DNA of 64,000 nucleotides from Gammaproteobacteria bacterium (GTDB taxonomy: Bacteria; Pseudomonadota; Gammaproteobacteria; Ga0077536), in contig CAXXLL010000003.1 of the NCBI GenBank assembly GCA_963662545.2, positions 1,152,001 to 1,216,000 of the forward strand, in the 5' to 3' direction. Positions 2,651 to 60,131 of the stretch are shown one piece after another; position 1 is the first letter of the stretch, and each line of letters begins with the position of its first letter. Below the pieces are notes generated by a model, which ran no database searches, was not told the DNA's origin, and was given only the letters and a program-made list of their open reading frames with translations. The position numbers were made by a program, and so were the translations under genes.

Positions 2651-2690
2651 GAGTTAGCGCTTATGCTCAACCGATCCGATACGGGCTTAG

Positions 2691-2852
2691 GGAACCCCTG
2701 AATAAGTTATGGCACACCTGCCTTGCGCCTGAAATCGCGGAGCCTTAACCGACGAAGCTTGCCAATAGTCCCCGCTATGGCCGGCGATTCGTGCCTTGAT
2801 CTGCACGATTTCATGCACCATTCACCCGCACCATAACTTATTCAGAGGTTTC
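2691..2852. mobile_element. Family A palindromic element (MITE-like), copy A1, 162 bp
   Basis: Terminal IR GGAACCCCTGAATAAGTTATGG / CCATAACTTATTCAGAGGTTTC; TTAG direct repeats 2687-2690 and 2853-2856. Confidence 0.9.
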
Positions 2853-3476
2853 TTAGCGCATTTCCTGCTCAGCCGGGGAAAGGCTGCTTTGAAAAGCCGG
2901 TCGATCGAACAGCTTATCGGCATATTTGACGAGTGGCTTAGCCTGTGCCGTCAGTTTTACGCCGTAATACGGCAAACGCCATAGAAGCGGACCCATGCAC
3001 ATGTCGGTGAGGGAAAAATCTTGTGTCATGAAGTACGGGTGTTGAGAGAATATCGGTGCGAGCGCCATCAGATTATCCCGCAGTGACTTGCGCGCATTAG
3101 CGGCGGCAATGTCGTTGTCGCCATCAAGAACCTCGGCCGAAGTGAACAGATCCCGAACGATACGAAAGCGGAACTGTCGATTATTAGCTCGCGAGACCGG
3201 GTCCACCGGCATTAACGGCGGATGCGGGTAACGTTCGTCGAGATACTCCATCATGATCTGCCCGTCATACAAAACGAGGTCACGATCAATCAAGGTAAGT
3301 ACGTTCTGGTAGGGGTTTAGAACGTTTAAATCTTCGGGCTTATTTTCTTCATCGATGAAATGGATCTCGACATGGATGTCCTTCTCCATCAGGACCAATC
3401 GTACACAGTGACCAATAAGGTCGGCCTCACTTGCATATAAGGTCATCACCGAACGTCTGTTTGCTAATGCAGTCAT
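2853..3476 (-). CDS. sspA: Stringent starvation protein A
   Basis: ANRRSVMTLY, EYLDERYPHPPLMPVDPV; between petC and sspB. Confidence 0.95.
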   Translation of the reverse strand: MTALANRRSVMTLYASEADLIGHCVRLVLMEKDIHVEIHFIDEENKPEDLNVLNPYQNVLTLIDRDLVLYDGQIMMEYLDERYPHPPLMPVDPVSRANNRQFRFRIVRDLFTSAEVLDGDNDIAAANARKSLRDNLMALAPIFSQHPYFMTQDFSLTDMCMGPLLWRLPYYGVKLTAQAKPLVKYADKLFDRPAFQSSLSPAEQEMR

Positions 3477-3477
3477 A

Positions 3478-4206
3478 TCAGTGAATATCCTTCCAATAAT
3501 CTCGTTTCATAAGGTAGGTTGCCGCCAGTAAAACCAAAAGAAAAGCGATGGTCCAGAAGCCGACTCGGTAGCGAATGAGCTTGGCCGGTTCTCCCACGTA
3601 AACCATGAAACTCACGAGCTCACGAACCGTTTTTTCATACTGCGACGGATCCAGCTTTCCGGGAACAGCAATTTTCAGGGTTGGACCGCGGTGAGCGTGC
3701 GCGTCCTCTTGAGCCTCCACCAACCGCTGTAATCCCTGAAGTTCCCACAAGACATGCGGCATAGCGGTGTCCGGGAAATACAGGTTATTCATGCCCCTCG
3801 GCCTGCTGTCATCGAGATAGAAACCAAGCAGATACGAATACAGCCAGTCAGCGCCGCGCGACCGGGCAATAACGGATAGATCGGGAGGCGCCACGCCAAA
3901 CCACTGCTCGGCATCTTGCGGCTGCATGGCGACCGTCATGGTGTTCCCGATCTTGTTCGTGGTGAACATCAGGTTCTTTTCTACGGCTTCCTCGCTGAGA
4001 TCGAGGTCTTCCACCAGCCGGTTGTAGCGCATGTAGGCAGCGGAGTGGCAACTCAGGCAGTAATTCACGAAGGTGCGAGCGCCGCGTTGCAAACTAGCCT
4101 TGCTGCCCAGGGAGACGTTCGCGTCGAGCAATTCGGGACCGTGACTGCCCGCAGCAATTCCGACGGTTGCGCAAACCCAAAGGGCCAGTGCAAGAATCGT
4201 TCGCAT
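3478..4206 (-). CDS. petC: Cytochrome c1
   Basis: SLQRGARTFVNYCLSCH heme motif, PPDLS, MPHVL, C-terminal TM; probable ATG 4206. Confidence 0.95.
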   Translation of the reverse strand: MRTILALALWVCATVGIAAGSHGPELLDANVSLGSKASLQRGARTFVNYCLSCHSAAYMRYNRLVEDLDLSEEAVEKNLMFTTNKIGNTMTVAMQPQDAEQWFGVAPPDLSVIARSRGADWLYSYLLGFYLDDSRPRGMNNLYFPDTAMPHVLWELQGLQRLVEAQEDAHAHRGPTLKIAVPGKLDPSQYEKTVRELVSFMVYVGEPAKLIRYRVGFWTIAFLLVLLAATYLMKRDYWKDIH

Positions 4207-4208
4207 GG

Positions 4209-5441
4209 TCAACCCGTCAGCCGATCCGGGACCGGCTTGGTTTTGTCCACTTTCGAGTAAAACGGCATCAGTAGAAAGAACCCGAAGTATATAAGTGAAA
4301 AACCGCGCGCGAGCCAGGTATACAAATTGGTCGGATTTTGCGTGCCGAGGTATCCCAGCGAAATGAAGCTGATGACAAACAAAACTAATGCCGTCTTGAA
4401 AATCGGTCCTCGGTAGCGAATCGATTTTACCGGACTGCGATCCAGCCACGGCAGCAAAAAGAACACCATCGTCGCCGCACCCATCGCCATCACGCCGAAC
4501 AATTTATCGGGGACCGCCCGCAAAATCGCGTAGAAAGGAGTGAAATACCAGACCGGCACGATGTGGTCAGGAGTCTTGAGCGGATTGGCCGGGACGAAAT
4601 TATTGTGTTCCAGGAACCACCCGCCAAACTCCGGAGCGAAGAATACTACAGCCGAAAACACGATTAGAAACGCCACTACCCCCACCGAATCCTTGACCGT
4701 GTAATACGGATGAAACGGAATACCGTCTACGGGCTTGCCATCGGCATCCTTGTTGTCCTTGATTTCGATGCCGTCCGGATTATTCGACCCGACCTCATGC
4801 AGTGCAATGATGTGCAATACGACTAGCCCTGCGATAGCAAAGGGAAGTGCAATGACATGGAACGAGAAAAATCGATTGAGGGTAATGTCGGAAACGACGT
4901 AATCACCGCGAATCCATAACGACAAGGTTTCTCCCACGAACGGGATGGCGCCAAAGAGTGAAATGATGACCTGGGCACCCCAGTAAGACATCTGCCCCCA
5001 GGGTAGGAGGTATCCGCAAAACGCTTCCGCCATCAGCGTCAGATACAGGAACATCCCCAGTATCCAAACGAGTTCGCGAGGCTTCTTGTAGGAGCCATAC
5101 AACAGCGCTCGAAACATGTGAAGATAAATGACGATAAAAAAGAAGGACGACCCCGTCGAATGCATGTACCGGATCAGCCACCCCCAGTCGACATCGCGCA
5201 TGATGTACTCGACCGAGGCAAACGCGGTAGCCGCGTCCGGCTTGTAATTCATCACCAGCCAGATGCCCGTAACGATTTGGATCGCGAGCACGACCATGGA
5301 AAAAACGCCGAAGTAATACCAGAAGTTAAAGTTTTTAGGCGCGTAATAACGGCCCATGTGATCGTTCCATAACTGCATAAGCGGGAACCGATCGTCGACC
5401 CAATCGCGAAGCTCGACCAAGCCTTTGACTACTGCGTTCAT
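4209..5441 (-). CDS. petB: Cytochrome b
   Basis: [29 protein letters not shown]. Confidence 0.97.
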
Positions 5442-6037
5442 GAAGATCCCCCGCCGGCATCACCGATTAACAGGCGGGTTTCGCTGAGAAACCTGTATGG
5501 CGGGACCGTCATATTCTTCGGCGCCGGGACACCGGTGTATACGCGACCGGAAAGATCGAACTTCGAACCGTGACAGGGACAGAAAAAACCACCATGCCAA
5601 TTTTCGCCCATATTCACCTCGTTACCCGAAGCCACAAAACTCGGAGAACATCCGAGATGGGTGCATAAGCCGACGAGCACCAGATACTCGGGATTCGAAG
5701 AACGCCAGGAATTCAGGGCAAAATCGGGCTGCTCCGATCCTTCCGAACTCGGGTCGCGCAAGGCGCCTGACGGCATCGATGCTAGCGCTTCGAGTTGTTC
5801 CGGCGTTCGGCGGACGATCCAGACGGGCTTGCCCCGCCACTTGTGAATGATCCGCTGACCGATTTCGATCTTGCTTATGTCGACTTCGACCGGGGCGCCG
5901 ACTGCTTTCGCCCTGGCACTGGGTTGAAAGGTGGAAACGAAGGGGATCGCCGCGATACCGGCTCCAATACCGCCGATCACAACTACCGTACCGGTGAGAA
6001 ATCGGCGTCGCTCCAGGTCGACAGCATTCTCCTTCAT
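5438..6037 (-). CDS. petA: Rieske Fe-S subunit of the bc1 complex
   Basis: Tat RRRFL, CTHLGC, CPCHGS. Confidence 0.97.
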
Positions 6038-6200
6038 GCTCCCTTATCTCCTACACTGAATCTGTTCATGCAGTCGTCGATGCGCCGCCGGACTTGTGTG
6101 GCGATATTTGACTCGTTGTGGCCAGATTACGGATTTGGCCCCCAAGACATGATTCCGCGTCCGCCTCCCCTGATATTCGTTTTGGACCGAATATGCCTGG

Positions 6201-6360
6201 TAGCCTGTCGGACTTAGGGAATCGTAGCGCGGCGGGTGGAAAAGCGGGCTCGGAGGTGTCATGGTTTGAGGCGAATAGTGGGGCTATTTAACGAAAACCA
6301 TGGCGTATCTGGACCGCTATCCCAACGCCCAAGTCAATTCTTCCTAAGTCCGACAGGCTG
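6201..6360. mobile_element. Family B palindromic element, copy B1, 160 bp
   Basis: IR AGCCTGTCGGACTTAGG / CCTAAGTCCGACAGGCT; flanks CTGG/CTAG; related to 59356-59516. Confidence 0.8.
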
Positions 6361-6484
6361 CTAGCAGCATTCGATACGGAATGTCGATTTGTTAGGGTTA
6401 TGCGGTGGATTATACCACCAAATTTCAGGCGGCCATGGTCACTTGGGGACGTTCACCGGCCCTTAAATCCCCTTCACAACTTAA

Positions 6485-7606
6485 ATGAAAACTTTATTGT
6501 TCACCCTAAAATGGTCTTTCATCGGCCTGGGCGGAGCGCTGTTCATTCTGTTGTCGCTGCGCTACGCCGAGAATGCTGCGGGCATCGATCTACGCTTCGA
6601 CGAATGGCTGGGAACGGGCACCGAAGAGCACGCCGTCGGGTTCGCCCACGCAGTCGCCAGAGCTGCACCGGCGGTCGTCAGTGTTCATGCCGTCAGCCGC
6701 CGTCGGCAGAGGGCGAATCCACTGGTTGAAGATCCGGTTTTCCGACAGTTCTTCGGGACCCCCTCATCGAACGGTGCGACGCGTGCCGAAACCAGTCTGG
6801 GCAGCGGCGTCATTTTGGACGAATCGGGCGTGCTGCTCACCAATTATCACGTGATTCGCGGCGCTCAGGCTATCCAGGTTTCACTGCAGGACGGACGTAC
6901 CGCCGCGGCAGAGATCGTCGGGGCCGATCCGGACACCGATCTCGCGGTATTGAAAATCGATCTCGACGATCTTCCGCACATCGCGATCGCGGATTCCGAT
7001 AAGGTGAAGGTCGGAGATATCGTACTCGCTATCGGGAATCCGCTCGGCATCGGCCAGACCGTGACCCAGGGAATCGTCAGCGCCACGGGACGCAATCGTG
7101 TCGGTATCAATACATACGAGAATTTCATTCAGACCGACGCCGCGATTAATTTTGGAAACTCCGGGGGTGCTCTGGTTGACACGCACGGCGAGCTGGTGGG
7201 GATCAATTCGGTGCGAGTCGACACGGAAGGTATCGGATTCGCCATTCCAACGAGTATCGCAATCAAGGTAGCGAAACAGATACTCAGAACGGGCAGCGTT
7301 ACACGCGGCTGGCTTGGGATGGAAGCGCGCGATCTCACGCCGCGCTTAAGGGAGATGCTTGGCGCCGAAGAAGGAATCGTGGTATTCGGCATTCTAGCCG
7401 GCGGCCCGGCTGATATGGCCGGAATTCGTCCGGGCGACGTAATCACTCACATCGACCAGATCGCAATCACAGATTCTCACGCGGCCATCGAGCGGATCGC
7501 GGACCTTGGCCCGGGCTCCCGCGTTCCAATCAAGGGGATCAGGGAAAAGCGCCTTTACACCACGGACGTTACCGTGTCGATACGCCCGCCGCCGCCGGTG
7601 AATTGA
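6485..7606 (+). CDS. degS: DegS/HtrA-family serine protease, one PDZ domain
   Basis: LGSGVI, TNYHV, IQTDAAINFGNSGGAL, C-terminal PDZ. Confidence 0.85.
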   Translation: MKTLLFTLKWSFIGLGGALFILLSLRYAENAAGIDLRFDEWLGTGTEEHAVGFAHAVARAAPAVVSVHAVSRRRQRANPLVEDPVFRQFFGTPSSNGATRAETSLGSGVILDESGVLLTNYHVIRGAQAIQVSLQDGRTAAAEIVGADPDTDLAVLKIDLDDLPHIAIADSDKVKVGDIVLAIGNPLGIGQTVTQGIVSATGRNRVGINTYENFIQTDAAINFGNSGGALVDTHGELVGINSVRVDTEGIGFAIPTSIAIKVAKQILRTGSVTRGWLGMEARDLTPRLREMLGAEEGIVVFGILAGGPADMAGIRPGDVITHIDQIAITDSHAAIERIADLGPGSRVPIKGIREKRLYTTDVTVSIRPPPPVN

Positions 7607-7619
7607 AATCCGACTGGAA

Positions 7620-7754
7620 AGTGTCCATCCATAAACGTCAATATTTCTCTCGCAAAGGCGCCAAGAAAGCATTTAATACAATATTAATAACAATCAACCT
7701 ATCATTTTGCGATCTCTGCCTCTTGGCGAGAGTTACTCTTTCTGGATGGACGCT
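7620..7754. repeat. Palindromic intergenic element (family D) with AT-rich core
   Basis: IR AGTGTCCATCCA / TGGATGGACGCT; inner arms CTCTCGC...GCGAGAG; between convergent degS and hisC. Confidence 0.6.
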
Positions 7755-7756
7755 AT

Positions 7757-8845
7757 TTAGGTTAGCGACGACCGTAGCGCACACAGAAACGCCTGATTTT
7801 CCTCCGCCGTGCCGACTGTGACCCGTAGGCAGTCGGCGAGCAGCGGGTGGCTGTCCGACAAGTTTTTGATGAGTATTCCCTGCTGTTTTAACGACTCGAA
7901 TGTGGACGTGCCGCGTTCGCGTGGTGCGCGAAACAGAATGAAATTGGTCGCGCTTGGCCATACGGTAATGCCGTCGAGTCGCCTGAGGCCGTCGTACAAG
8001 ACTTCGCGTTGTTCGATGATCGCCGATATCTGAGTCTGGAATGCGCTTTCGTGCTCGATGGCGAATTTCCCAGCGGCCTGCGACAGCGCACTGATGTTGT
8101 ACGGCATTCGCAGCCGCTCGATCAGGTCGATCCACGGTTCGGCCCCGAATAACACTCCCACCCGGATACCGGCCAGGCCGATTTTGGACAGGGTCTGCAT
8201 GACGACGAGGTTTTCGATCGACTGAATTTCCGCGACACGCGTGTGCCCGCTGAAACGGTAATAGGCTTCATCCAGTACGACGAGGCCGGGCGCAAACTCG
8301 CAGATAGCCTCCAGTGTGTTCTCGTCTAACCTGTTCGCGGTCGGGTTGTTGGGACTGGCTATAAAGACCAGCGCCGGTTCATGTTCCTTTATCGCAGCGA
8401 TAGTGACGTCGAGATCCAATGCAAAATCGGATTCATCGAGCGGGACACCGAGAAATTTCATACCGACGGCGCGGGCCGCGTTCGAATACACCACGAAAGT
8501 CGGCTCCGGACACAGCACGCAGGCACCGCCGCCGCGGGCAAACGCAAGGCACAGTAAATGGATCAGCTCGTCCGACCCATTGCCGAGCGCCGCCTGGATC
8601 GTTTCCGGTAGATCGTGTGAATTCAGAAGACTCTGCTTGAGCTCGGATGCAGCAGGGTCCGGATAGCGGTTCGGTTCGACGCCGCTGAGCAGGTCATTCC
8701 AGCTTTCACGCAGCTCGACAGGGATCGAATAGGGATTTTCCATCGCGTCAAGCTTGATGAGCCCGCCCGCGTCCACAATTTTGTAGGGTACGAGTTCGCG
8801 GACCCAGGGCGCCGCAAAGCGTTCCAGACGGTCTTCTATACTCAT
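7757..8845 (-). CDS. hisC: Histidinol-phosphate aminotransferase
   Basis: [35 protein letters not shown]. Confidence 0.95.
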
Positions 8846-10143: not shown

Positions 10144-10798
10144 CGCCTTCGGCCACCGCGGCTTTAAGGGCGTCGATAATTTTGCTGACGCGCACATGCT
10201 TGGTTTTCATCGCCGCCTTGTTCACGATTAATCGCGAACTGATCTCACAAATCGTCTCCATGGCAACCAAGCCATTGGCCTTTAGCGTATTACCGGTATC
10301 GACCAGGTCGACGATGCGATCGGCAAGCCCGACCAGCGGTGCCAATTCCATGGAACCGTAAAGCTTGATGATCTCCGCCTGTATGCCCTGCTGAGCGAAA
10401 TAGTTTCGCGCCGTCCGCGAATACTTGGTGGCGATTCGCGGACGCTCGGAGTTCAGTTCTGTATTCGGTAGACCCGCAACCACGAGGCGGCACTGGGCGA
10501 GGCGCAGATCCACGGGCTCGTAGTAATCCGCTCCTTCATGCTCCAGCAGGACGTCTTTGCCCGCGATCCCGAGATCCGCCGCCCCGTACTCCACGTAGGT
10601 CGGCACGTCGGAAGCGCGAATCACGAGCAGTTGAAAGCCGGGATTTGACGTTTCCAGGACAAGTTTGCGTGAAGTATCCGGATCGTCCTTGACTTCGATA
10701 CCGATTCGTCCGAGCAGAGGGATAGCATCGTTCAGAATCCTGCCCTTGGATACGGCAATCACCAGATTGTCGGCCGTTGTTTTCAGCGGATTCGCCAC
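10136..10798 (-). CDS. hisG: ATP phosphoribosyltransferase, short form (HisZ-dependent)
   Basis: [38 protein letters not shown]. Confidence 0.96.
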
Positions 10799-13884: not shown

Positions 13885-13908
13885 GGGCTCAGTCTCCTGT
13901 GTTTCTAA

Positions 13909-14069
13909 GGAATCTCTGAATAAGTCATGGTGCGTCTGAATTGTTCATGAACAGTGCAGATCAAGGCACGAATCGCAGGCCATAGCGGGGACTATTAGCA
14001 AGGTTCGTAACGCCGAGCTGCGCGATTTCATGGGCAAGGCAGATGGGCCATGACTTATTCAGAGGTTCC
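13909..14069. mobile_element. Family A element, copy A2, 161 bp, opposite orientation to A1
   Basis: GGAATCTCTGAATAAGTCATGG / CCATGACTTATTCAGAGGTTCC; CTAA direct repeats. Confidence 0.9.
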
Positions 14070-14095
14070 CTAAGGACCCGTCATTTCCAACCGGG

Positions 14096-15286: not shown

Positions 15287-15314
15287 GCGAGTGGCCGCTC
15301 GTTTTGAGGTTTAG

Positions 15315-15476
15315 GGAACCTCTGAGTAAGTCATGGTGCGTCTGAATTGTTCATTAAATTGTGCAGATCAAGGCACGAATCGCAGGCCATAGCGGGGACT
15401 ATGGGCAAGATTCGTAACGCCGAGCTGCGCGATTTCATGGGCAAGGTAGAGGTGCCATGACTTATTCAGAGGTTCC
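15315..15476. mobile_element. Family A element, copy A3, 162 bp
   Basis: Same IRs; TTAG direct repeats 15311-15314 and 15477-15480. Confidence 0.9.
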
Positions 15477-16613
15477 TTAGTCATCATTAAGGACATCGAA
15501 GCCGAGGGCGTCGAGTTCGGCCACAGTATCGGGCGCGAGCCCATCGCTTGCAACGATGAAACTCGAGAATTCCCGACGCAGTCCAAAGCGCGCGCGGATG
15601 TCGTCGAAATGGGCATCGCGCCGCGCAGTCGGCAGGGCCAGCATGCGGCGAAGGCGTTCAGAGTGCCCCGCCAGTGGATGCACTTCCGACAGCAGTTCAG
15701 CAATACCTCCGACGGCGGACAGGGGCGTTTCGCGTCCGGCTGCCGGCGCCTTCAATCCGGACGGGAAAACTTCGTTCATCCTGCAGAAAACGTTGAGGGC
15801 GGTATGTAGCATGCGCGTTGCTTCGAGCCGCGCTTCGCAGCTGTGTCCAGCAATGTGCGGGGTCGCCACCCATGCCGACCGCAGGAGAGCCGCATCGATT
15901 TCGGGCTCGTAGGACCAGCAGTCAACGGCGGCATACAGCGGCGCGCCGGCTTCGAGCCGACGACACAACGCACGTTCGTTGACCACGCCACCGCGCGCCG
16001 CGTTGATGAGCAGCGCCTCGTGCCGAAGACGATTTATACCGTTTTCATCGATCAGATCGACGGTGCGGTGTTGCCCCGTGCTCGTCAGGGGTACATGCAA
16101 ACTAACTACGTCGCGGTCCATGATCTCCTCGAGGGACAGCAAACGAATCGCGCCGGATGCCTCGGCCAGCGGCGGATCGCTGATGGCAAATTCGATACCG
16201 AGCTTCTTGAGCAGCGATGCCAGACATCGTCCGACATTGCCATAACCGACGATCCCGACCGCCAGTTCACGCGGCGGCACCTTACGCAACGCTGCATAGG
16301 TATAGAGACAGGTCGCGACATGCTCAGCGACTGCACGCGCATTGCATCCCTCGGCATGGGCAAATTCGATGGACGCACGGGCGAGGAATTCGGCATCGAC
16401 GTGGTCGACGCCTGCCGTCGCCGTACCTACGAACCGGACCGGTGTTCCCGCCAGCAGGGAGTGGTCGATCGGGGTGACGGAACGCACCAGGAGAATTTCG
16501 GCGTCCCCAATATCGGTTTGGCGCAGGCGGCGGCCATCGAACAGGCGTACCGGACCGAACGCCTCAAAAACCTCTGCAACGGCGGCGATTTCTCTGTCCG
16601 CGAGAATCTCCAA
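15477..16613 (-). CDS. pdxB: Erythronate-4-phosphate dehydrogenase
   Basis: LLVRSVT, GTATAGVDHVD, GCNARAVAE, TPHIAGHS, RREF. Confidence 0.92.
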   Translation of the reverse strand: MEILADREIAAVAEVFEAFGPVRLFDGRRLRQTDIGDAEILLVRSVTPIDHSLLAGTPVRFVGTATAGVDHVDAEFLARASIEFAHAEGCNARAVAEHVATCLYTYAALRKVPPRELAVGIVGYGNVGRCLASLLKKLGIEFAISDPPLAEASGAIRLLSLEEIMDRDVVSLHVPLTSTGQHRTVDLIDENGINRLRHEALLINAARGGVVNERALCRRLEAGAPLYAAVDCWSYEPEIDAALLRSAWVATPHIAGHSCEARLEATRMLHTALNVFCRMNEVFPSGLKAPAAGRETPLSAVGGIAELLSEVHPLAGHSERLRRMLALPTARRDAHFDDIRARFGLRREFSSFIVASDGLAPDTVAELDALGFDVLNDD

Positions 16614-19404: not shown

Positions 19405-19430
19405 CTAGCAGTCTGTCGGACTTAGGGAAT
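19405..19430. repeat. Solo end of a family B element
   Basis: CTAG-CAGTCTGTCGGACTTAGGGAAT, nearly identical to the B1 IR. Confidence 0.65.
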
Positions 19431-22126: not shown

Positions 22127-22213
22127 GCCGGGGTGGCGGAACTGGTAGACGCGCCAGACTCAAAATCTGGTATGGGTAACCATGTGAGAGTTCGAGTCTC
22201 TCTCCCGGCACCA
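22127..22213 (+). tRNA. tRNA-Leu (anticodon CAA)
   Basis: Acceptor GCCGGGG/TCCCGGC, anticodon arm CCAGA-CTCAAAA-TCTGG, long variable arm, GTTCGAG, encoded CCA. Confidence 0.96.
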
Positions 22214-29205: not shown

Positions 29206-29335
29206 GCCGGGAGTCTAGCAGCCCGTCAGACCTGGTAAGAATCTGCTACGACGCTTAAGAAACCTCTGAATAAGTCATAGCACATCTGCCTTGCTCATGA
29301 AATCGTGGAGCCTTACGTTACGAACCTTAGCCCTA

Positions 29336-30480
29336 AATAGGTGTTCCAAAAACTCGATCAAATAAAAAGAACTCAGGTGACATTCAGAGATCAGAGGTTG
29401 TATCGAGCAATCTACGTTCCCGAAAGAGGTCACCTGAGTATGGATAGTTTAGTGTCATTGACGCGCTCACAGAAACGTCGCTTTAAGCGGTTGATTCAAC
29501 GCAGCGATAACGGGCGGGTGGTTCGCCGCGCTCAAGTCCTGTTGCAGTTAGCTTCAGGCGTCTCACCGACGGCCGTGTCACGCAGTTTGTCGGTCGCGCG
29601 TTCAACGGTTTATCGATGGGTCACGCAATTCCAGACCGCGGGTGAAGCCTTTCTCGAGGCGTGCGGCTCGGGCCGGCGGGCGTATACGGTGGATGACACC
29701 CTGTTGGAGACGCTCGCCGAGTTAGTTGAGCAGCCGCCCAGTGATTATGGCTACCTGCGCAGTACGTGGACGAGCGAGATGCTGGCCGAGACGCTGAATT
29801 CGTTGCTGTCACGGCCCATTCACGCCTCTACGGTACGTCGCTGGCTAGTTAATTTGGGATTCGGCTGGCGTCGTGCTCGTCCGACCTTACATCTGCGCGA
29901 CCCACGGGCAGCCACGCGCCTGAAAGCCATTCATCGTGCGTTGTCTCGAGCCCCATCGGGGCATGAAGTGTTTTACGCCGATGAGGTCGATATCGACCTC
30001 AATCCCAAAATCGGTTTCCTTTGGTCTACTCAAGGTTGTCAACGTGCCATCCCCACGCCTGGGCAAAACCGGAAACGCTATCTGGCGGGCGCGCTGCACG
30101 CACGAACCGGTCGCGTTGCGTATGTCGAGGGCACACGGAAAAACAGCGACCTATTCCTTTGCCTGCTCGACCACCTGCGGCAAACTTACCGCGCCGCGCG
30201 TCGAATTATCTTGATCGTGGATAACTACATCATCCACAAATGTCGCTTGGCACACGTCTGGCTAAAGCACAATCCGAAATTCCGATTGCTGTTCCAGCCG
30301 GCCTATCAGCCCTGGGTCAATGACATTGAGAAACTCTGGAAACAGTTGCACGACAATGTCACCCGGAATCATCGTTACTCGACCATCGACCGTCTGATGG
30401 ACGCAGTACGTGCCTTCATGCGTGCGGCAAGTCCATTCCCGGGAAACTGCCCGAGTGTCGCAAGATTTGGATCACCTATT
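29336..30480 (+). mobile_element. IS630-family insertion sequence, 1145 bp
   Basis: IR AATAGGTGTTCCAAA / TTTGGATCACCTATT; TA duplication within a CTAG target. Confidence 0.93.
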
Positions 30481-30483
30481 TAG
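29440..30483 (+). CDS. IS630 transposase
   Basis: HTH ARSTVYRW, YADEVD, IVDNYIIH, PWVNDIEKLW; probable ATG 29440. Confidence 0.93.
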   Translation: MDSLVSLTRSQKRRFKRLIQRSDNGRVVRRAQVLLQLASGVSPTAVSRSLSVARSTVYRWVTQFQTAGEAFLEACGSGRRAYTVDDTLLETLAELVEQPPSDYGYLRSTWTSEMLAETLNSLLSRPIHASTVRRWLVNLGFGWRRARPTLHLRDPRAATRLKAIHRALSRAPSGHEVFYADEVDIDLNPKIGFLWSTQGCQRAIPTPGQNRKRYLAGALHARTGRVAYVEGTRKNSDLFLCLLDHLRQTYRAARRIILIVDNYIIHKCRLAHVWLKHNPKFRLLFQPAYQPWVNDIEKLWKQLHDNVTRNHRYSTIDRLMDAVRAFMRAASPFPGNCPSVARFGSPI

Positions 30484-30697
30484 TCCCCGCTATTACCTGC
30501 GATTCGTGCCTTGATCAGCACCATTGCATGAACCATTCATGCCCACCATGACTTATTCAGAGGTTCCTTAAGATCTACTGAAAGGTGGTCTTGTTCGCGA
30601 CTTGGAACCCGCCTGGTAGTCAGGCTGATTGGGGCTCAACAAATCGAGCAGATTCGATTGGTTGATGAATGCAAACAAGTCGCGGGACGTACTGAGA

Positions 30698-34444: not shown

Positions 34445-34501
34445 TAATCTTGTTTTCCTGGGTTTTTGCCGGCACGATATTTTCGCGCGAATGCCAGCTT
34501 G

Positions 34502-34663
34502 GGAATCTCTGGATAAGTTATGGTGCGCGTGAATGGTGCATGAAATCGTGCAGATCTAGGCACGAATCGCAGGCCATAGCGGGGACTATGGGCAAGATTC
34601 GTAACGTAAGGCTCCGCGATTTCAGGCGCAATGCCGGTGTGCCATAACTTATTCAGAGGTTCC
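34502..34663. mobile_element. Family A element copy A5, 162 bp
   Basis: GGAATCTCTGGATAAGTTATGG / CCATAACTTATTCAGAGGTTCC; flanks CTTG/CTAG. Confidence 0.88.
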
Positions 34664-34778
34664 CTAGAGTACGGCCAGGATATGATTTTAGCGGAGGAAC
34701 ACCCACACTACGACAGGCCATGAGATACGGAACATCGATCGAAATCGAACCGTACACGAAACTGAGGAGGAATCGTTA

Positions 34779-35497: not shown

Positions 35498-35543
35498 ATT
35501 GTTTCCCCCTGGTCGAGGCGTGTGCCCTAGCCAGGATAGTTAA

Positions 35544-35705
35544 GCAACCTCTGAATAAGTCATGGCACCTCTGCCCTGCCCATGAAATCGCGGAGCCTTA
35601 CGTTACGAACCTTAGCCCTAATCCCCGCTATGGCCGACGAATCGTGCCTTGACCTGCACCATTACATGAACCATTCAGACGCACCATGACTTATTCAGAG
35701 GTTCC
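35544..35705. mobile_element. Family A element copy A6, 162 bp
   Basis: Same IRs; flanks TTAA/CTAA. Confidence 0.88.
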
Positions 35706-35714
35706 CTAAGGCGC

Positions 35715-36056: not shown

Positions 36057-36064
36057 ACAGATAT

Positions 36065-36095
36065 TTAGAGAACTTCTGAATAAGTCATGGCGCCT
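36065..36095. repeat. Solo end of a family A element
   Basis: TTAG-AGAACTTCTGAATAAGTCATGGCGCCT. Confidence 0.7.
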
Positions 36096-36145
36096 TTGCG
36101 ACAAAGGTATTGGTATTAATGCATGGACACCATTGACTTCGAGCT

Positions 36146-39059: not shown

Positions 39060-39217
39060 AACCCATCTCAAAATTATTCGCGCCCACGCTGGTGGCCGTT
39101 GCCGTACGGTTCAAGGCGCGAGGAGCGTGGCAAAGCATAAGCTAAATGAGTGACGAGCAACGCCGAAATGCGCGAAAATCGCTCCCGGCGCACACGCGGA
39201 TAATTTTGAGATAGATT
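39060..39217. mobile_element. Family C palindromic element, 158 bp
   Basis: IR AACCCATCTCAAAATTATTCGCG / CGCGGATAATTTTGAGATAGATT; CTAG on both sides. Confidence 0.8.
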
Positions 39218-48969: not shown

Positions 48970-49223
48970 TACCAAGCGCGTTCGAAATCGTCACAGGACA
49001 GATTTCCCGCACCACGGACCCCCTCGCCACGGACGGCCTCTTTGATACAAGCTATCGCCCTTTATCGAGTTTTGAAAAACTCGGATCTTTCACTGTCTGG
49101 TAGCTAATTGCTCACAGGCTGACTCCTTCACCGGTCTGTCCTTAACTCTAGAACTCGTTGGCGGTCGTGCGACGAACATTTCTTTTTCGTCGGCGTGAGG
49201 TGAAAATGCCGGAAGGGGCTTAA

Positions 49224-49374
49224 GGAACCTCTGAATAAGTTATGGCACACCTGCCTTGCGCCTGAAATCGCGCGGCTCGGCGCTACGAATCTTGCCCATA
49301 GTCCCCGCTATGGCCTGCGATTCGTGCCTTGATCTGCACGATTTCATCCGCGCCATAACTTATTCAGAGATTCC
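49224..49374. mobile_element. Family A element copy A7, 151 bp (11-bp internal deletion)
   Basis: GGAACCTCTGAATAAGTTATGG / CCATAACTTATTCAGAGATTCC; TTAA flanks. Confidence 0.88.
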
Positions 49375-49397
49375 TTAATCTCCAATCTGACAAGACC

Positions 49398-50210: not shown

Positions 50211-50240
50211 TTAGAAATAATCTCAAAATTATCCGCATAC
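50211..50240. repeat. Solo or degenerate end of a family C element
   Basis: TTAG-AAATAATCTCAAAATTATCCGC resembles the reverse complement of the right end of 39060-39217. Confidence 0.6.
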
Positions 50241-51998: not shown

Positions 51999-52175
51999 CT
52001 ACATTCCTGCTTCTGCCGTATAACGATGAGGATCACCGGCGTGTTACAGCGCGTTTGTTTGGGATGAAAATAGGACCGCGGGACGTTCCCTCGGAAACGC
52101 TTTTTTAGTGAGAAGCATTCGTATTTGCTGGCGATCGGTTGATGCCGATACTGAAAAAAATCCTGCGAACCCGCG

Positions 52176-52394: not shown

Positions 52395-52395
52395 T

Positions 52396-53370: not shown

Positions 53371-53384
53371 TTAAGGAACCTCCG

Positions 53385-54257: not shown

Positions 54258-54351
54258 TGTTGCTAAACCGTGACGAAACTGTTCTAAGTCAGCGGAATAT
54301 TGAAAAACGAATTCCTGTCGTCATTCGCTCGATCGACTCGTTTCGTATCCT

Positions 54352-54426
54352 GTCCGCGAAGGCCATCGTGATTCTACCGGCTTTAAATTTCGGGTGCTCA
54401 AGCACCCGCCGGAGATACCATGTCGT
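54352..54426 (-). pseudogene. Possible C-terminal remnant of a biotin carboxylase
   Basis: TTWYLRRVLEHPKFKAGRITMAFAD resembles the AccC-type C-terminus. Confidence 0.5.
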
Positions 54427-54500
54427 AGAGGCCGACGCTGGTATACTCACAGCCCCACCACGAACGGCATTCGCCAGCAACCATTCCTAGTTCCGATCCG

Positions 54501-56069
54501 ATGCGAAGATTACTAGAAGACCGCCTCGAACGATTGATGTCGTCCGGGACGGCAAAGCTGCTGCGTGGCGGAAAAAAGGGTCTCGAAAAGGAAAGCCTGC
54601 GGATCACGGACGACGGCGAAATCGCCCAGACGCCGCACCCCTACGCGTGGGGCTCGCCGCTCACCCATCCCTATATCACGACCGATTATTCCGAATCCCT
54701 GCCCGAACTCATTACGCCGCCCTTCTCCGATACCGCGGCGGCGACCGGATTTCTGGAAGACGTTCACCGCTTCATCTATCAGGACCTGCCGGCGGATGAA
54801 ATGCTGTGGGCGTCGAGTATGCCGTGCGCGGTTTCCGACGACGGCTCGATTCCGATCGCCGAATACGGGAGCTCGAACGTCGGGCGGATGAAACACGTCT
54901 ACCGGGTGGGCCTGGATTACCGCTACGGTCGACGAATGCAGGCTATCTCTGGCGTACATTTCAATTATTCGCTGCCCGAGGAGTTCTGGCCGGCGTTTCA
55001 GGATGACGAAGATCTCGCCGGACCCCTGCAGGGATTTATCGACGACAACTATTTCGCGCTGATCAGAAATTTCAAGCGACTAGGATGGATGATCCCGTTC
55101 CTGTTCGGCAATTCGCCCGCTGTGTGTAAATCTTTTCTCGCCGGACGCACGACGCGATTCAAGGCGTTCACCCGCGGGACCTACTACCTCCCCTATGCAA
55201 CGTCGTTGCGAATGAGCGACATCGGCTACAAGAACAAGAACCAAGCCGCGCTGATCGTCTCCTATGACGATCTCGACGGCTATGTCGCCAGCCTCCGCAG
55301 CGCCATCAAGACGCCCTACCCGGAATACGAGGCCATCGGGGTCAGCGACGGCGAGGAACAGATTCAGCTCAGTACCAACCTGCTTCAAATAGAGAACGAA
55401 TATTACAGCTTCGTTCGCCCCAAGCGGACGACCCGCGCCGGGGAGCGGCCGACGTCCGCGTTGGACGAACGGGGCGTCGAATACGTCGAAGTGCGCGCAC
55501 TTGACGTTGCCAGCACGAGTCCCATCGGCGTCGAAATTGAGCAGTTGTACTTCCTCGAAGCATTCCTGATTTTCTGCCTGCTTGAAGGAAGCGTCGCGCT
55601 GTCCGAAGGCGAGTTGCGGGCTATGGAATACAACGAACTCACAGTGGCCCTGCGCGGCCGAACGCCCGGCCTCGAATTGGCCTATAACGGTTCGCGGCGT
55701 AATCTTCGTGACTGGAGCCTCGAAATCTGCGATCGCATGCAGCCCATTTGCGAGTTCCTCGATGCGGATGATGCATCGCGAAAATACGATAAAGCGCGCC
55801 AACGCCAAATTGCCGTTATCAACGAGCCCGATCGGCTACCATCGACCAAGATCCTGAAGGCCTTGAGCGACGCCGCTCAACCTTTTCATCATTACTCGGC
55901 CGCACTCTCCGTCGCCCACCGATCACATTTCGCCGCACTTCCTCCCGACGATAACCTCAAAGCCAGGTTCGAGCGGCTTGCCGTAGAGTCACACGAAGAA
56001 CAGCGTCGACTGGAATCCGAGGATTCGATATCGTTCGAGGAGTTCGTTGCGGCCTATCTCGACGGCTGA
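54501..56069 (+). CDS. gshA: Glutamate-cysteine ligase
   Basis: GLEKESLR, ITTDYSES, MQAISGVHFN, ATSLRMS, LQIENEYY. Confidence 0.96.
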   Translation: MRRLLEDRLERLMSSGTAKLLRGGKKGLEKESLRITDDGEIAQTPHPYAWGSPLTHPYITTDYSESLPELITPPFSDTAAATGFLEDVHRFIYQDLPADEMLWASSMPCAVSDDGSIPIAEYGSSNVGRMKHVYRVGLDYRYGRRMQAISGVHFNYSLPEEFWPAFQDDEDLAGPLQGFIDDNYFALIRNFKRLGWMIPFLFGNSPAVCKSFLAGRTTRFKAFTRGTYYLPYATSLRMSDIGYKNKNQAALIVSYDDLDGYVASLRSAIKTPYPEYEAIGVSDGEEQIQLSTNLLQIENEYYSFVRPKRTTRAGERPTSALDERGVEYVEVRALDVASTSPIGVEIEQLYFLEAFLIFCLLEGSVALSEGELRAMEYNELTVALRGRTPGLELAYNGSRRNLRDWSLEICDRMQPICEFLDADDASRKYDKARQRQIAVINEPDRLPSTKILKALSDAAQPFHHYSAALSVAHRSHFAALPPDDNLKARFERLAVESHEEQRRLESEDSISFEEFVAAYLDG

Positions 56070-56159
56070 CTCAACAGTGGAACTTCTTTCCGTGACGCGT
56101 ATCTTAGTGACCATCGAGCACCGTCGTTGCGACGTCACCTGAAGGCGAGGTCAGGAGCC

Positions 56160-56732
56160 ATGAACCGAAGACAGATTCTCAAAGCCACCGGGTTAGGAAT
56201 CGCGCTGCCGCTATTGCCGCTCGCCTTTCTCGATGCCGGTGCGCGGACGACCCCGGAATCCATTGTGGAAATGCAGCGCCGCTGGCGCGACTTTCGACCG
56301 GTGGGCTTCGAGCCGGTCCGAGCGGAACCGAGCCTGGACAGGCCGCTGGAGGAATGGCGGCGGGAGCTGCCGCAAGCGGCTTACCGGGTGTTATTCGAGG
56401 AAGATACCGAACGGTCGTATTCGAGCGCGCTGAATGATGAGAAGCGCCCGGGACTGTTTGTCTGCCAGGCGTGCGATCTACCGCTTTTTACTTCCGAAAT
56501 GAAATACGACAGCCGCACCGGTTGGCCGAGCTTCTTCACGACGATCCCCGGTCATCTGGCCACGAAAACGGATTTCAAACAGATCTGGCCCCGTACGGAG
56601 TATCACTGCGTTAAGTGTGGCGGTCACCAAGGACACATATTCGACGATGGTCCCCCGCCAACGGGAAAACGCTGGTGCAATAATGGGCTCGCGCTCCGCT
56701 TCATCGCAATGGCGATAGAAACCGCGGGTTAA
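56160..56732 (+). CDS. msrB: Methionine-R-sulfoxide reductase with Tat signal
   Basis: AGGAG RBS, NRRQILK, GWPSF, two CxxC, RWCNN. Confidence 0.92.
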   Translation: MNRRQILKATGLGIALPLLPLAFLDAGARTTPESIVEMQRRWRDFRPVGFEPVRAEPSLDRPLEEWRRELPQAAYRVLFEEDTERSYSSALNDEKRPGLFVCQACDLPLFTSEMKYDSRTGWPSFFTTIPGHLATKTDFKQIWPRTEYHCVKCGGHQGHIFDDGPPPTGKRWCNNGLALRFIAMAIETAG

Positions 56733-56780
56733 AGTTCGCACGATTAGGTCTCAAAAATAATCGGGAGACCGCCGCTAGGC

Positions 56781-57371
56781 TCAGGCGAGGTGCTCGAGGG
56801 CATACATCACGACCTCCGCGTCGCGCTTCACATACACGCCGCCGCCCGCATTTCGGAATTCCTTCGATAATCGTCGTTGATACCAGGCGCTCGACCGCAG
56901 GTGAACGTCGCCATCGGTACGATGCTGGTTGCAGTTGCCCTCCCAATCTTCGCGAGTGAGTACACCGAAGTAGAGCGCAGCGTCGGTCAAGCTGGCCAGC
57001 TTCTCGAGTGCGCGTATCGCCGTGGGGCGGTTGAGATACTGGAGGACGTCATGGCAGATGACGAGATCGAAGCCCTCTTCGTGCAGGTAGTCTTCGATTG
57101 AGGAACATTGCCATCCGTACCGTTTGCAGACGTACTCGCTGACATCGATACCGTCGATGCGGACGCCCGGAAACGCCCGGCGCAACCCGCGATGCAACAG
57201 GCCCGGTCCACAACCGGCATCCAGAATGCTTTCCACCGGACAGTCCAGAAATGCCAGGTAGGCGCCGATGAACCCCGCCAGACGATCGAAATATGACGGG
57301 TCCGCCACGCGGGTCTCCGCATCGAAATAAAATCGCTCGAAATAGGCCTCGTCGAAAGATTCTGGCTTCAT
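56781..57371 (-). CDS. Class I SAM-dependent methyltransferase
   Basis: ILDAGCGPG, DLVICHDVLQY. Confidence 0.88.
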   Translation of the reverse strand: MKPESFDEAYFERFYFDAETRVADPSYFDRLAGFIGAYLAFLDCPVESILDAGCGPGLLHRGLRRAFPGVRIDGIDVSEYVCKRYGWQCSSIEDYLHEEGFDLVICHDVLQYLNRPTAIRALEKLASLTDAALYFGVLTREDWEGNCNQHRTDGDVHLRSSAWYQRRLSKEFRNAGGGVYVKRDAEVVMYALEHLA

Positions 57372-57610
57372 TGATCAATAGATCAACCCGCAACGCCGTA
57401 TTGCGAAATTCAAGTTACTGCTGACCGCTCCGATGAAGTCACAATACACGCCTGAAAAGCGAGGGCCTCTAACCGGGCCGTGCCGACCTGAAACCGGTTC
57501 TTATGTCAATTCAAGTCAAAATTCGTAAAAACGTGAACCGATTCGCGTTAATGCTCGATAGCAGCGCTACGCTACAACTATACGCTGCATAATCGTGTGG
57601 GGGATAACTG

Positions 57611-59254
57611 ATGAACAACCGTCACCTTATCGCCGGGTTTTTGATAGGGCTGTGCTGTACCGAGGCGCTCGCAGTCCAGCTCGGACAGCTTTCGAGCTAT
57701 TCACGGCTGGGCGAGCCGCTCATCGCACGCATCGACTTATACGGCGCGCAAACCGACAAACTCGCTCTATCCAGTTTCGAATTGCGACCCGAGATCGGCA
57801 CTCGCAACGATAGCGCCGAGCAGCGCGCCCTCAGCACGATATCACCGTCGCTGGCGCAAGACCGGCGCGGGCAGCCTTATCTCAAGCTGACCTCGACCGT
57901 GCCGGTAAACGAACCCATTGTTTCCTTCCGCGTACGCTTGCAAACGGGCACGACGACCAGCGTACGTCACTATACCCTCGCGCTCGACCCCGCCGTTTAC
58001 CGCTCAAAGCCTGTCCCGCCGATCGCTGAAGAGCGGGGCGTCGCGCCGATGACGAATGCGTCCGCTAGCCAATACGGCCCCGTGCGATCCGGTCAGTCCT
58101 TGTGGCGCATCATGCGCGAAACCGGATTGGCTAGAAGCGATACGGGTGCGACCATCGAGCGCATCGTCGCGGATAACCCTCATGCATTCGTCGCCGGTGA
58201 CGCGAATCGCATGCGGGTCGGCGTAATGCTCGTCTTGCCGCAACACGATTCTGCGGCCACCACGCGCCCTGCAACCATGTCGGTCGACGCCATTGCCGAG
58301 GAAATTGCGCCGGCTTCGGCCACCGCGATCCGGTCGCCGGCCGCCTTGAGTATGCCTTCGGCACAGTCGGCAGATCGCGGCGCAGGCATCGCAGCGGCGT
58401 CCCGTGCTACGGCCCCCGACATCAGCAGGGCAGCACGCCTGGCAGCGCTGGAGGTGAAATTCGCGGCGATTCGTAAACGCTACGCCTCGCAGCAGCCCAC
58501 CGCCTCACCGTCAACCGAATCCGCGGTGGCTGCAGTCGTTCTCGCCATGCCGGCCTCGGCGGCGACTGACGACGATATCGCCGTCGTTAAACCGCAAGAA
58601 ACCAGTGCGGAGACACCCGCCGCCATGGCACCGCGCACCACTGAGCAGGCTGCGGCCGATCTCGGTGGGTCGTTCCTGGACGATGGCTCGTTCGGCAAGC
58701 TCGCTTTGACCGTACTCGGTCTTGTACTCTTGGTTAGCTTGATCGCGAAAGCGTCGCTCGCCGGCATGGCCTACCTGCGTCGGCGAGGCTTGCAGCAGAC
58801 CGAACTAACTGCGGATGAAGATCTCAAGGCCGAGATCGGACTCAAGGCTGAGAAGCGCTTGCAACTCGAGGACGAAGTGAAACGCCGGATCGCAGAAAAG
58901 CGTGAGCCGGAACCCGCTGAAAGCGGCGATGCGAAAGCGCGTGCGGGCGAAGTCGTGTCCATCGAAGAGATCGAATCGAGGATCGCACACGGATATTATT
59001 CGGAAGCGGAACGGCTTTTGTTAGACGTGATCGGACGTACGCCCGGCAACCATCGCGCGAAACTCCTCCTCGTCGAGGTCTACTATCTCAACGAGCGCGT
59101 CGAGGATTTCGTCAGAATCACCGAGGAGATTCAACTATTACATCGCTCCGACATCGGCGATGACCACTGGCAACGCATCATGCGCATGGGCAAGGTTCTC
59201 GCGCCGGAGCGTGCCCTGTTCAGCGGTCCGACGGCGATTGATAGAGAGGCCTGA
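57611..59254 (+). CDS. Short FimV-like protein
   Basis: LGQLSSYSRLGEPL, YGPVRSGQSLWRI..NPHAF, TM, IAHGYYSEA..KLLLVEVY TPR. Confidence 0.78.
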   Translation: MNNRHLIAGFLIGLCCTEALAVQLGQLSSYSRLGEPLIARIDLYGAQTDKLALSSFELRPEIGTRNDSAEQRALSTISPSLAQDRRGQPYLKLTSTVPVNEPIVSFRVRLQTGTTTSVRHYTLALDPAVYRSKPVPPIAEERGVAPMTNASASQYGPVRSGQSLWRIMRETGLARSDTGATIERIVADNPHAFVAGDANRMRVGVMLVLPQHDSAATTRPATMSVDAIAEEIAPASATAIRSPAALSMPSAQSADRGAGIAAASRATAPDISRAARLAALEVKFAAIRKRYASQQPTASPSTESAVAAVVLAMPASAATDDDIAVVKPQETSAETPAAMAPRTTEQAAADLGGSFLDDGSFGKLALTVLGLVLLVSLIAKASLAGMAYLRRRGLQQTELTADEDLKAEIGLKAEKRLQLEDEVKRRIAEKREPEPAESGDAKARAGEVVSIEEIESRIAHGYYSEAERLLLDVIGRTPGNHRAKLLLVEVYYLNERVEDFVRITEEIQLLHRSDIGDDHWQRIMRMGKVLAPERALFSGPTAIDREA

Positions 59255-59355
59255 TCCCGCTAACGTGCGGTTTTAAGGCAGCCGCACGGTGGCGCCGATT
59301 AATTTTTCGGAATCTTCGAACAAGGTCAGGAGCATATGCGTGATGCGCGCTCTAG

Positions 59356-59516
59356 GAGCCTGTATGGCATAGGGAATCGTAGCGAGGCGAGGGGGAAATC
59401 GAGGCCAGCTTTTCGATCATTTGAGGCGAATAGGGGTGACTATTTAACGTCAATGATCGGAAAGCTGGACCGATTTCCCGCCGCCGTAGTAGATTCATCC
59501 TATGCCATACAGGCTC
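59356..59516. mobile_element. Family B element copy B2, 161 bp
   Basis: IR GAGCCTGTATGGCATAGG / CCTATGCCATACAGGCTC; flanks CTAG/CTAT. Confidence 0.82.
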
Positions 59517-60131
59517 CTATTTGTCTTTCTCGCGCTTTTTGCGACGATTCCAGGATGCGCGCGGCCCCTGCCGCCCCAGGACGTCGCGGATCGTTTCTGG
59601 CGAGCTGTCATTACCCAGCATCCGGCGAAGATCCGACGGTACGTGCGAGCCCAGGATCAAGAAACTCTCGCCGACGATCCCGCGATCATGCCCGTCGAGT
59701 CTTTCGAATTGGAACGCGTCGTCATCGACGGTGACGCGACTTCGATAGAAACCCGCATTACGCTCGGCGCCGACAAACCCGTAGCGCTCAGGATCAATAC
59801 CCTGCTGGTGCGCGAGAACGGACGGTGGCGCGTGGATTATTCCGCAACGATCCGGGACATATCACTGCAGAGCAATCTCGCCCAGGTCATCGATCAGATC
59901 GAAGCCTTCGGCGGCGCGCTCAAAGACGGCATTGATAAATCGGTGGAAGAAATGAAGAAAGTGCTGCCCGATATCGAGCGGGAGCTCTTACGCATCGAAG
60001 AAGCAATAAAACAACGCGTTCCAGAGTTACGCGAGCGCCTCGAGGAATTCACCAGGCAATTGGAAGATTCGCTCAAAGCACCACCTGAGGTACCGCCGGA
60101 AGCCGGGCAACCCGACACCGTTGAGATCTAA
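59502..60131 (+). CDS. Hypothetical lipoprotein
   Basis: Lipobox IPGC, ENGRWRVDY, helical C-terminus; ATG lies inside B2. Confidence 0.75.
   Translation: MPYRLLFVFLALFATIPGCARPLPPQDVADRFWRAVITQHPAKIRRYVRAQDQETLADDPAIMPVESFELERVVIDGDATSIETRITLGADKPVALRINTLLVRENGRWRVDYSATIRDISLQSNLAQVIDQIEAFGGALKDGIDKSVEEMKKVLPDIERELLRIEEAIKQRVPELRERLEEFTRQLEDSLKAPPEVPPEAGQPDTVEI

Follow-up and report, generated by a model that had tools for sequence, protein, structure and literature searches.

Why should small hairpin repeats with unrelated ends be built on one plan? The question is raised by a 64-kb stretch (the window in what follows) of a 5.58-Mb bacterial genome, here called G000, in which a first-pass annotation, made from the letters of the DNA, had described three such families of repeats, A, B and C, and had proposed that they share one architecture and a strand-specific pair of internal motifs. 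The proposal held on closer analysis. A core of ~75 nucleotides (nt) is common to A, C and a further family, D, and the same core is central in transposable elements of the miniature inverted-repeat type (MITEs) whose terminal repeats are of at least four unrelated kinds. Family B appears to be weakly tied to the shared core, by a match of 9.8 bits. We regard A, C and D as one MITE superfamily that resembles the ERIC elements, and B probably belongs to it as well.

Read from its 5' side, the core consists of an outer stem, the string C-AA-GGC-GC, a 7-bp covarying helix (P3) and a GCNG/CAA internal loop; its tip is a terminal hairpin, often of the form ..ATAG-loop-CTAT.., which is followed by P3' and GC-AAC-GCC-G. 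The junction so formed, CAAGGCRC ... GYAACGC, has two bulges, as GGC pairs with GCC and leaves AA extrahelical on the 5' strand and AAC on the 3' strand. The motif pairs that had been quoted for the three families are present as quoted; of the unpaired state ascribed to them, the AA and AAC bulges stand, and the GGC and GCC parts are paired with each other. Family C has the junction exactly, A has CAAGGCAC ... GTAACG, and B keeps only GAGGCG-AATAG..CTATT-TAACG. There is a second core type, to which D belongs, where P3 gives way to a zipper in which G-C pairs alternate with tandem G.A/A.G pairs; in the zipper of genome G001, C-G stands in place of G-C, with both strands changed. A-type elements of other genera have the same ends and a length of ~160 nt, with unrelated stems, and keep the central module. 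Other readings of the junction were tried. An archaeal bulge-helix-bulge reading of CAA-GGCG / CAA-CGCC was rejected, the small-subunit rRNA being bacterial (1620 bits) and no match to the splicing endonuclease family PF01974 being found; kink-turn, integration host factor (IHF)-site and promoter readings, judged by eye only, did not fit.

To recognize the core by structure we used R1, a covariance model built from 106 core sequences, none of which comes from G000. R1 has 121 matches in G000, and in the window it finds A3, A6, A2 and A4 at E-values of 1.7e-17 to 1.9e-9, C1 at 2.2e-7 and A5 at 3.9e-4 (Table 1). A1, B1 and B2 are without a match at E <= 1 in the window scan; the 9.8-bit match of B1 is a local one at 6264-6298, at the tip. 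An earlier census by regular expression (47 matches vs 4 in the control) had under-counted A and is superseded by the model.

The 106 distinct cores are what remains of 115 pattern matches after removal of 9 duplicates, matches less than 30 nt from a locus end being excluded, and were aligned with 12-nt flanks on a structure of 29 pairs. In this alignment 81.2% of the paired cells can pair, compared with 62.7% after shuffling and 30-41% when the partners are slid, and the cells changed on both sides number 641 vs 260. As would be expected of the folded strand that had been proposed, the helices covary: the covariation score is 0.435, against 0.133 in shuffled alignments (reached by 0 of 500 shuffles) and 0.08-0.13 with slid partners. 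Eight of the 29 pairs were set by the search pattern itself and are uninformative; it is P1, P3 and the extension of the terminal hairpin that carry the signal. No core or element matched an Rfam family when the window was searched at the gathering threshold, ten loci and C1 in E-value mode, and 12 more core loci besides; the E-value mode returned two chance matches to microRNA models, far below threshold, and nothing else.

The fold belongs to one strand. All nine intact copies of the window fold far better than their shuffles (z -4.5 to -12.3), and the strand on which AAGGC comes first is the more stable one in eight of them, the two strands of C1 being about equal; the same strand has more G.U pairs in seven copies and the same number in two. 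The consensus of A folds at -92.4 kcal/mol on this strand vs -71.0 on the other, A2 at -91.5 vs -65.2 and B1 at -82.6 vs -69.2. Because the median gap between the two strands of an A copy is 80 bits (nhmmer), the strand asymmetry of this family is sharply defined. Across the 106 cores, mismatch cells are G.U in 187 cases and A.C in 73, and by sequence G.U is in excess in 69 and A.C in 14, with 23 tied.

The wobble bias that the first-pass annotation had read from a few stems is therefore present across the cores, but it is not found among the independent variants within A (G.U 45, A.C 44), although all deviations of A from its consensus Watson-Crick pairs amount to 197 G.U and 107 A.C cells. 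The bias sits in variants carried by lineages that multiplied. Per column, A has 2.40 rare variants in its ends and 2.44 in its arms, against 1.87 in its core (p 0.026), and resident copies decay about neutrally, ends included. Since residents decay in this way and the independent variants within A have no wobble bias, selection seems to act on propagating lineages and not on each copy.

Families A, B and C proved to be real, multi-copy, intergenic hairpin repeats. Genome-wide, A has 156 loci, of which 132 are full length (nhmmer); 58 matches of B merge to 47 loci; C has 24. All three are short, non-coding and multi-copy, with terminal inverted repeats (TIRs) and a target-site duplication, as is typical of MITEs. 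Their intact elements in the window span 154-163 nt, flanking repeats excluded, and all 132 full copies of A are intergenic by a crude gene caller. A YTAR flank, or a variant of it with one mismatch, had been described for every family. It is true of A, which has a 4-bp direct YTAR duplication whose two sides agree fully in 71 of the 132 copies (TTAG/TTAG 27, CTAA/CTAA 20, TTAA/TTAA 13) and whose positions 1 and 4 correlate between sides; B and C are flanked by a 2-bp TA on each side, replaced by AT in two C copies. For A, mobility is indicated by presence and absence: A2 and A3, the two copies examined, are absent at the orthologous sites of the congeneric genome G002, which has many A copies elsewhere. 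Neither site is a clean empty site with a single duplication, and one resembles a deletion between 5-nt repeats.

Family B comprises two subfamilies with unlike ends and unlike stems and an identical centre. The usual form of C is ~275 nt long and has two cores in opposite orientation; C1 is a one-core deletion form of it, and mini forms of 50-100 nt are present too. Elements of family D are ~170 nt long and TA-flanked, have ends of the TAGTGTGC type and contain the G.A-zipper form of the core; D occurs at G000:C2:1028160-1028460 and about 10 further places, with zero copies in the window.

Some internal variation of B and C was observed along the way. Variants of B of ~224 and ~290 nt (e.g., C3:542411-542634 and C2:2528511-2528800) contain one or two tandem 66-nt modules of three small hairpins, inserted directly after TAACGAAAA, and four B copies share a ~48-nt TA-flanked insert at the same site of the right arm (e.g., C2:1874393-1874600 and C3:879677-879880), one of them in a longer version. 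In full-size C (e.g., C2:1910595-1910870) a short GCCC-loop-GGGT hairpin with a variable loop (TTCG, TCCG, GAAG or GCAG) lies between the two cores, and this hairpin is also found after the core in elements of Comamonadaceae.

Where the ends come from can be answered in part. Of 22 positions in the end of A, 13-14 are identical to those of the IS5A ends of E. coli, and YTAR is the target site of IS5; with an IS5-like terminal repeat and a 4-bp YTAR duplication, A has the marks of the IS5 group. InsH-like transposases are encoded in 11 of 81 genomes of the taxonomic family and in 0 of 3 genomes of this genus. An A-like end with 2-5 mismatches lies at 8 of 10 examined InsH-like loci, and at five of the loci it stands ~60 nt upstream of the InsH-like ATG, behind a YTAR-type flank. 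A complete insertion sequence (IS) of the IS630 family (DDE_3, E 6.5e-20) on a plasmid of Cupriavidus sp. KK10 has TAGTGTCCCGAG-type (TAGTG-type) ends, the same as those of the MITE in locus L101, which represents another MITE class; D-like ends, too, have the TA duplication of the IS630 type. Judged from these resemblances, the ends of A derive from an IS5-type and the D-like ends from an IS630-type transposon. A search for the same inverted repeats around a transposase had been suggested; in other genomes such ends accompany a transposase gene for the A-like (IS5-type) and the TAGTG-type (IS630-family) ends, and in G000 none was found for A, B or C. As to the suspicion that the elements are no ordinary DDE-derived MITEs, the ends are of ordinary DDE type, IS5-like or IS630-like, and it is the interior, with its conserved core, that departs from the type.

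G000 yielded no cognate transposase for any of A, B and C, in line with what had been noted for the window, and no pair of their ends at IS-like spacing encloses a transposase there. For B and C no parent was identified, and plasmid searches with the arms of B and C and with A gave no match. A transposase gene is nevertheless visible in the window: one of the IS630 family (DDE_3) lies at 29341-30483, between the two halves of a split A copy; it is not the parent of A because its IS landed inside the A loop. This IS, 1145 bp long, was inserted at CTAG and duplicated TA at 29334-5 and 30481-2; of its ~20 similar genomic copies only that of the window is flanked by A halves. Two candidates for parents of A were rejected: the 380-aa open reading frame (ORF) between the A halves, which belongs to the ~20-copy IS630-family IS with ends of its own, and pairs of A ends 1-2.8 kb apart, which are truncated solo ends beside complete copies. 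R1 has 0 matches in 11 IS5-like or IS630-like IS loci (41 kb in total), from which it follows that the core is not a remnant of the parent transposons.

Insertions into A loops are not confined to the window. A 1.4-kb IS4-like IS with a 460-aa DDE_Tnp_1 transposase lies in the terminal loop of two other A copies (G000:C2:2471508-2473111 and C3:2821417-2823020), in opposite orientations relative to A and with ~9-nt duplications, which hints that this IS targets hairpin tips. G000 is very rich in ISs, with 109 matches to DDE_Tnp_1, 69 to DUF772, 21 to DDE_3 and 7 to Y1_Tnp.

The core is not a peculiarity of this genome. Within the taxonomic family, R1 has matches in 34 of 60 genomes, and a two-anchor pattern is present in 66 of 81; compared with the reversed control, its counts are 30/0 in G000, 63/2 in G001, 72/0 in G066 and 47/2 in G090, and they are near the control in many other genomes of the family. 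In a species-level genome collection, the exact pattern of 23 fixed bases occurs in at least 119 stretches, where an estimated ~0.1 would be expected by chance. Among the matches listed, the submitters' titles name Gamma- and Betaproteobacteria, Desulfobacterales, Polyangiales, Gemmatimonadota and Acidobacteriota; such labels are unverified and to be read with care, and one metagenome-assembled genome labelled Enterobacteriaceae (L103/G097) groups in the same family as G000. In these matches, too, the core occupies the middle of long hairpins, which have ends of several classes, and two annotated plasmids bear it without annotation at that place. In three loci labelled Gemmatimonadota (L093, L104 and L132), a ~60-nt AT-rich insert, which may be another nested mini-element, interrupts the right arm just after the core.

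The genomic context of the core was examined as well. Copies of A between tandem genes show no orientation bias, with 39 on the same strand and 50 opposing (p 0.29). No bias was seen in other genomes either (15 vs 11, by crude gene calls); there, 57 of the 106 loci could not be used, as 26 touched a locus edge, 17 were far from genes and 14 fell within called ORFs, and a further 23 had convergent or divergent genes on either side. When intergenic length is taken into account, A is somewhat enriched between co-directional genes (89 vs 72.9 expected, p 0.017); by count of intergenic regions the enrichment is not significant (p 0.21). No recurrent gene was found near the core, the largest neighbour cluster (5 of 106 loci) being a spurious translation of the repeat itself.

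What, then, keeps the core? The reading that we favour, at somewhat less than even confidence, is that it is a cis-acting module which is read in single-stranded form and favours the propagation of its element. In A, C, D and probably B, terminal repeats derived from DDE transposons surround a ~75-nt structured core of non-transposon origin, which would be active when the CAAGGC-first strand is single-stranded and folded, in extruded or replicating DNA or possibly in a transcript. A host factor of wide conservation would recognize the bulges and the G.A platform of the folded core, and the element would become more likely to transpose or to establish itself; lineages with the core retained would spread, and their resident copies would decay. 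We prefer this reading because conservation is seen in lineages and not in residents, and because it is independent of gene orientation and of the transposase used. We consider it possible, if rather doubtful, that the core is itself the persistent selfish unit, a cis-acting transposition enhancer, read by a universal host protein when single-stranded and folded, that has repeatedly swapped its TIRs across IS5, IS630 and several phyla, with classical ERIC as one branch.

Several points count against a cis-acting single-stranded module. The experimental evidence on ERIC, as far as it is set out in the parts of PMC2229807 consulted, is at the level of RNA and not of DNA. Both strands extrude in a cruciform, so a wobble bias on one strand is not obviously explained, and hairpin-templated repair could keep the complementarity of a palindrome without any function. 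We know of no requirement for single-stranded intermediates among DDE transposases of the IS5 and IS630 families. Judged by GC skew, contigs C2 and C3 probably form one chromosome, replicated from an origin near C3:1.72 Mb to a terminus near C2:1.86 Mb. On replichores so defined, 50 copies of A have their folding strand on the G-rich strand and 82 have it on the opposite one (p 0.007, post hoc), a modest bias that runs counter to that of single-strand transposons of the IS200/IS605 type. In the alignment of the 106 cores, 23 positions were fixed by the selection pattern and their conservation is by construction; moreover, kinship among the sequences inflates the shuffle statistics, and the shuffle numbers are not to be read as probabilities.

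The main rival is an RNA module of the ERIC kind, in which the long hairpin with its bulged junction, transcribed by read-through, would be recognized by an RNase or an RNA-binding protein and would process, stabilise or insulate the mRNAs next to it; insertions would then be tolerable or useful, and the spread would be accounted for. We think this unlikely on balance, though a serious possibility. A precedent is ERIC, which shares the junction motif and, according to the portions of PMC2229807 and PMC3184786 consulted, is co-transcribed in Yersinia and has an orientation-dependent, RNase E-linked effect on mRNA. An RNA would also be consistent with the TTCG or TCCG loops often present in the hairpin between C cores, and the mismatches on one strand are G.U-compatible; however, it is established that G.T and tandem G.A pairs are tolerated in DNA too. 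Similarly, the length-corrected enrichment of A between co-directional genes would suit a transcribed element, but region counts do not bear it out and orientation to the flanking genes is unbiased in A and elsewhere. That residents decay about neutrally, and that no promoter is conserved and the arms differ between families, argues further against an RNA acting on its neighbours.

Next comes a chassis without function, which we consider improbable: an ancestral hairpin MITE would have spread horizontally and swapped its ends, and the core would have been kept by descent and hairpin-templated repair. Such a history would fit residents free of purifying selection, the unbiased orientation and the lack of a recurrent neighbouring gene. 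It is difficult to reconcile with the constancy of the bulged, non-Watson-Crick positions in families and phyla whose stems and ends have wholly diverged, with compensatory changes far above the controls, and with a wobble bias that favours one strand in 69 sequences vs 14. It is very unlikely that the repeats are a family of genes for trans-acting small RNAs. A conserved, covarying structure would suit such genes, and contigs of two metatranscriptome runs include A-like copies, a weak indication, as DNA may be present in such libraries, neither strand nor transcription can be read from contigs, and parts of the stretch were left uncovered; but there are at least 121 copies per genome, with ends and duplications, they decay neutrally, and they have no conserved promoter or terminator and no Rfam family match. 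Hardly credible is transposition as a single strand by an HUH (Y1) enzyme, in the manner of REP/REPIN-RAYT or IS200/IS605 with the bulged hairpin as recognition structure, for although an imperfect strand-specific hairpin with fixed extrahelical bases is known to resemble HUH substrates and G000 encodes 7 Y1_Tnp matches, the TIRs and duplications are typical of DDE transposons, the ends match IS5- and IS630-type elements, 0 of the 7 Y1_Tnp loci lie within 5 kb of a listed R1 match, and the replication-strand bias, a weak one, points the other way.

The features of the window are collected in Table 1. Its sole Rfam match at the gathering threshold is a tRNA gene.

Table 1. Hairpin elements, remnants and other features of the 64-kb window, in window coordinates.
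Feature	Class	Position	Strand	Evidence and remarks
A1	Family A, intact	2687..2857	- (core strand)	3' junction degenerate; repeat search, fold
B1	Family B	6201..6360	+	TIR of GCAGCCTGTCGGAC type; centre GAGGCG-AATAG..CTATT-TAACG
A2	Family A, MITE	13905..14074	+ (core strand)	Repeat search, nhmmer census; R1 13950-14025, E 1.3e-12
A3	Family A	15311..15480	+ (core strand)	TTAG/TTAG flanks; R1 15357-15432, E 1.7e-17
Solo B-type terminal repeat	Remnant	19408..19426	+	Fuzzy TIR search, 1 mismatch
tRNA gene		22127-22210		Rfam, gathering threshold
Split A copy, left half	Family A	29255..29335	-	Repeat search; IS sits in loop
IS630-family IS	Outside the MITE families	29336..30480	+	Pfam DDE_3 E 1.6e-23, HTH domains
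Split A copy, right half	Family A	30481..30572	-	Repeat search
A4	Family A, majority subfamily	34498..34667	+	3' junction TAACGTAAGGC; R1 34544-34619, E 1.9e-9
A5	Family A	35540..35710	- (core strand)	R1 35588-35663, E 3.9e-4
Solo A terminal repeat	Family A	36060..36099	+	Repeat search
C1	Family C	39060..39217	+	R1 39100-39175, E 2.2e-7
A6	Family A	49220..49388	- (core strand)	R1 49268-49343, E 5.4e-15
Solo C-type terminal repeat	Remnant	50214..50233	+	Fuzzy TIR search, 3 mismatches
B2	Family B, subfamily with GGAGCCTGTATGGC ends and different stems	59356..59516	+	Repeat search, fold

MITEs of the ERIC type have been used for typing for decades while the role of their interiors stayed obscure. 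The interior described here is a defined, strand-specific, covarying module and not transposon leftover, and it is common to elements of two transposase families in genomes labelled as several phyla, so that an old puzzle about such repeats becomes testable. A 75-nt fold with two fixed bulges is an object that can be probed by mutation for a part in transposition, in RNA processing or in neither, and the covariance model could annotate thousands of intergenic repeats that are at present without annotation. If it is true that the core promotes transposition whatever the transposase, this would be a new principle for the success of non-autonomous elements.

Among described elements, the closest is ERIC, known from enterobacteria and Vibrio, with which the junction motif is shared; homology is not statistically supported. 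Like the elements here, which are TA-flanked intergenic palindromes, ERIC (IRU/RU-1, ~127 bp) is described in the part of PMC2229807 consulted as an imperfect palindrome, small and intergenic, that is flanked by TA and has ends and duplications. We compared the core with the ERIC consensus (PMC2759123, from Table 1a) and with 12 copies of E. coli K-12, fetched with the ERIC2 primer pattern (12 sites vs 0 in the control). AAGGCG is present on one arm in 11 of the 12 copies, and the mirror position has CAACGC in 3 and TAACGC in 2 more; beyond the junction the arms are purine-rich, with GTGAG/GCGAA. Within the 36 kb of these loci, R1 aligns best at the junction and in the correct register, with a score of 12.8 bits (E 0.093) that is not significant; only 2 of the 12 copies are aligned. 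The centre differs, being 60 nt long in ERIC and 37 in the R1 model. A blastn search with a core-bearing element against E. coli genomes gave no match, and R1 on E. coli K-12 gave one chance match, inside a gene. For ERIC itself, the sections of PMC2229807 and PMC3184786 consulted report that no DNA motif besides the ends was found.

Correia/NEMIS elements of Neisseria are, according to the part of PMC2229807 consulted, TA-flanked MITEs of ~100-155 bp, as are the present elements in kind, with a transcript hairpin that is processed by RNase III and an IHF site in the centre. We saw no sequence relation to them, and a strand-specific, bulged core that crosses phyla is not reported for Correia. 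A likeness of working only is offered by integron attC sites, IS200/IS605 and REP hairpins, which function in one folded strand and keep their structure and extrahelical bases while the stems vary. These systems use tyrosine recombinases or HUH enzymes and are without TIRs and TA or YTAR duplications; the elements here have both of these, the core has no link to an enzyme of either kind, and none of the seven Y1_Tnp loci of G000 lies near a listed R1 match. In the Stowaway MITE, internal sequences absent from the parent reportedly raise transposition in cis (Yang et al. 2009); this system is eukaryotic and mariner-like, and a conserved folded core is not reported for it. The literature, in which subscription journals were incompletely covered, gave no description of a core common to several end classes or phyla. 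The remaining comparison is with the RUP elements of the pneumococcus, Nezha of cyanobacteria and other IS630- or IS5-derived MITEs, as named in Table 1 of PMC3184786. Like the present families, they are non-coding and multi-copy, have IS-like ends and a TA or YTAR duplication, and are mobilised in trans. Unlike in those MITEs, the interior here is not a remnant of the parent IS but a core common to MITEs of two transposase families.

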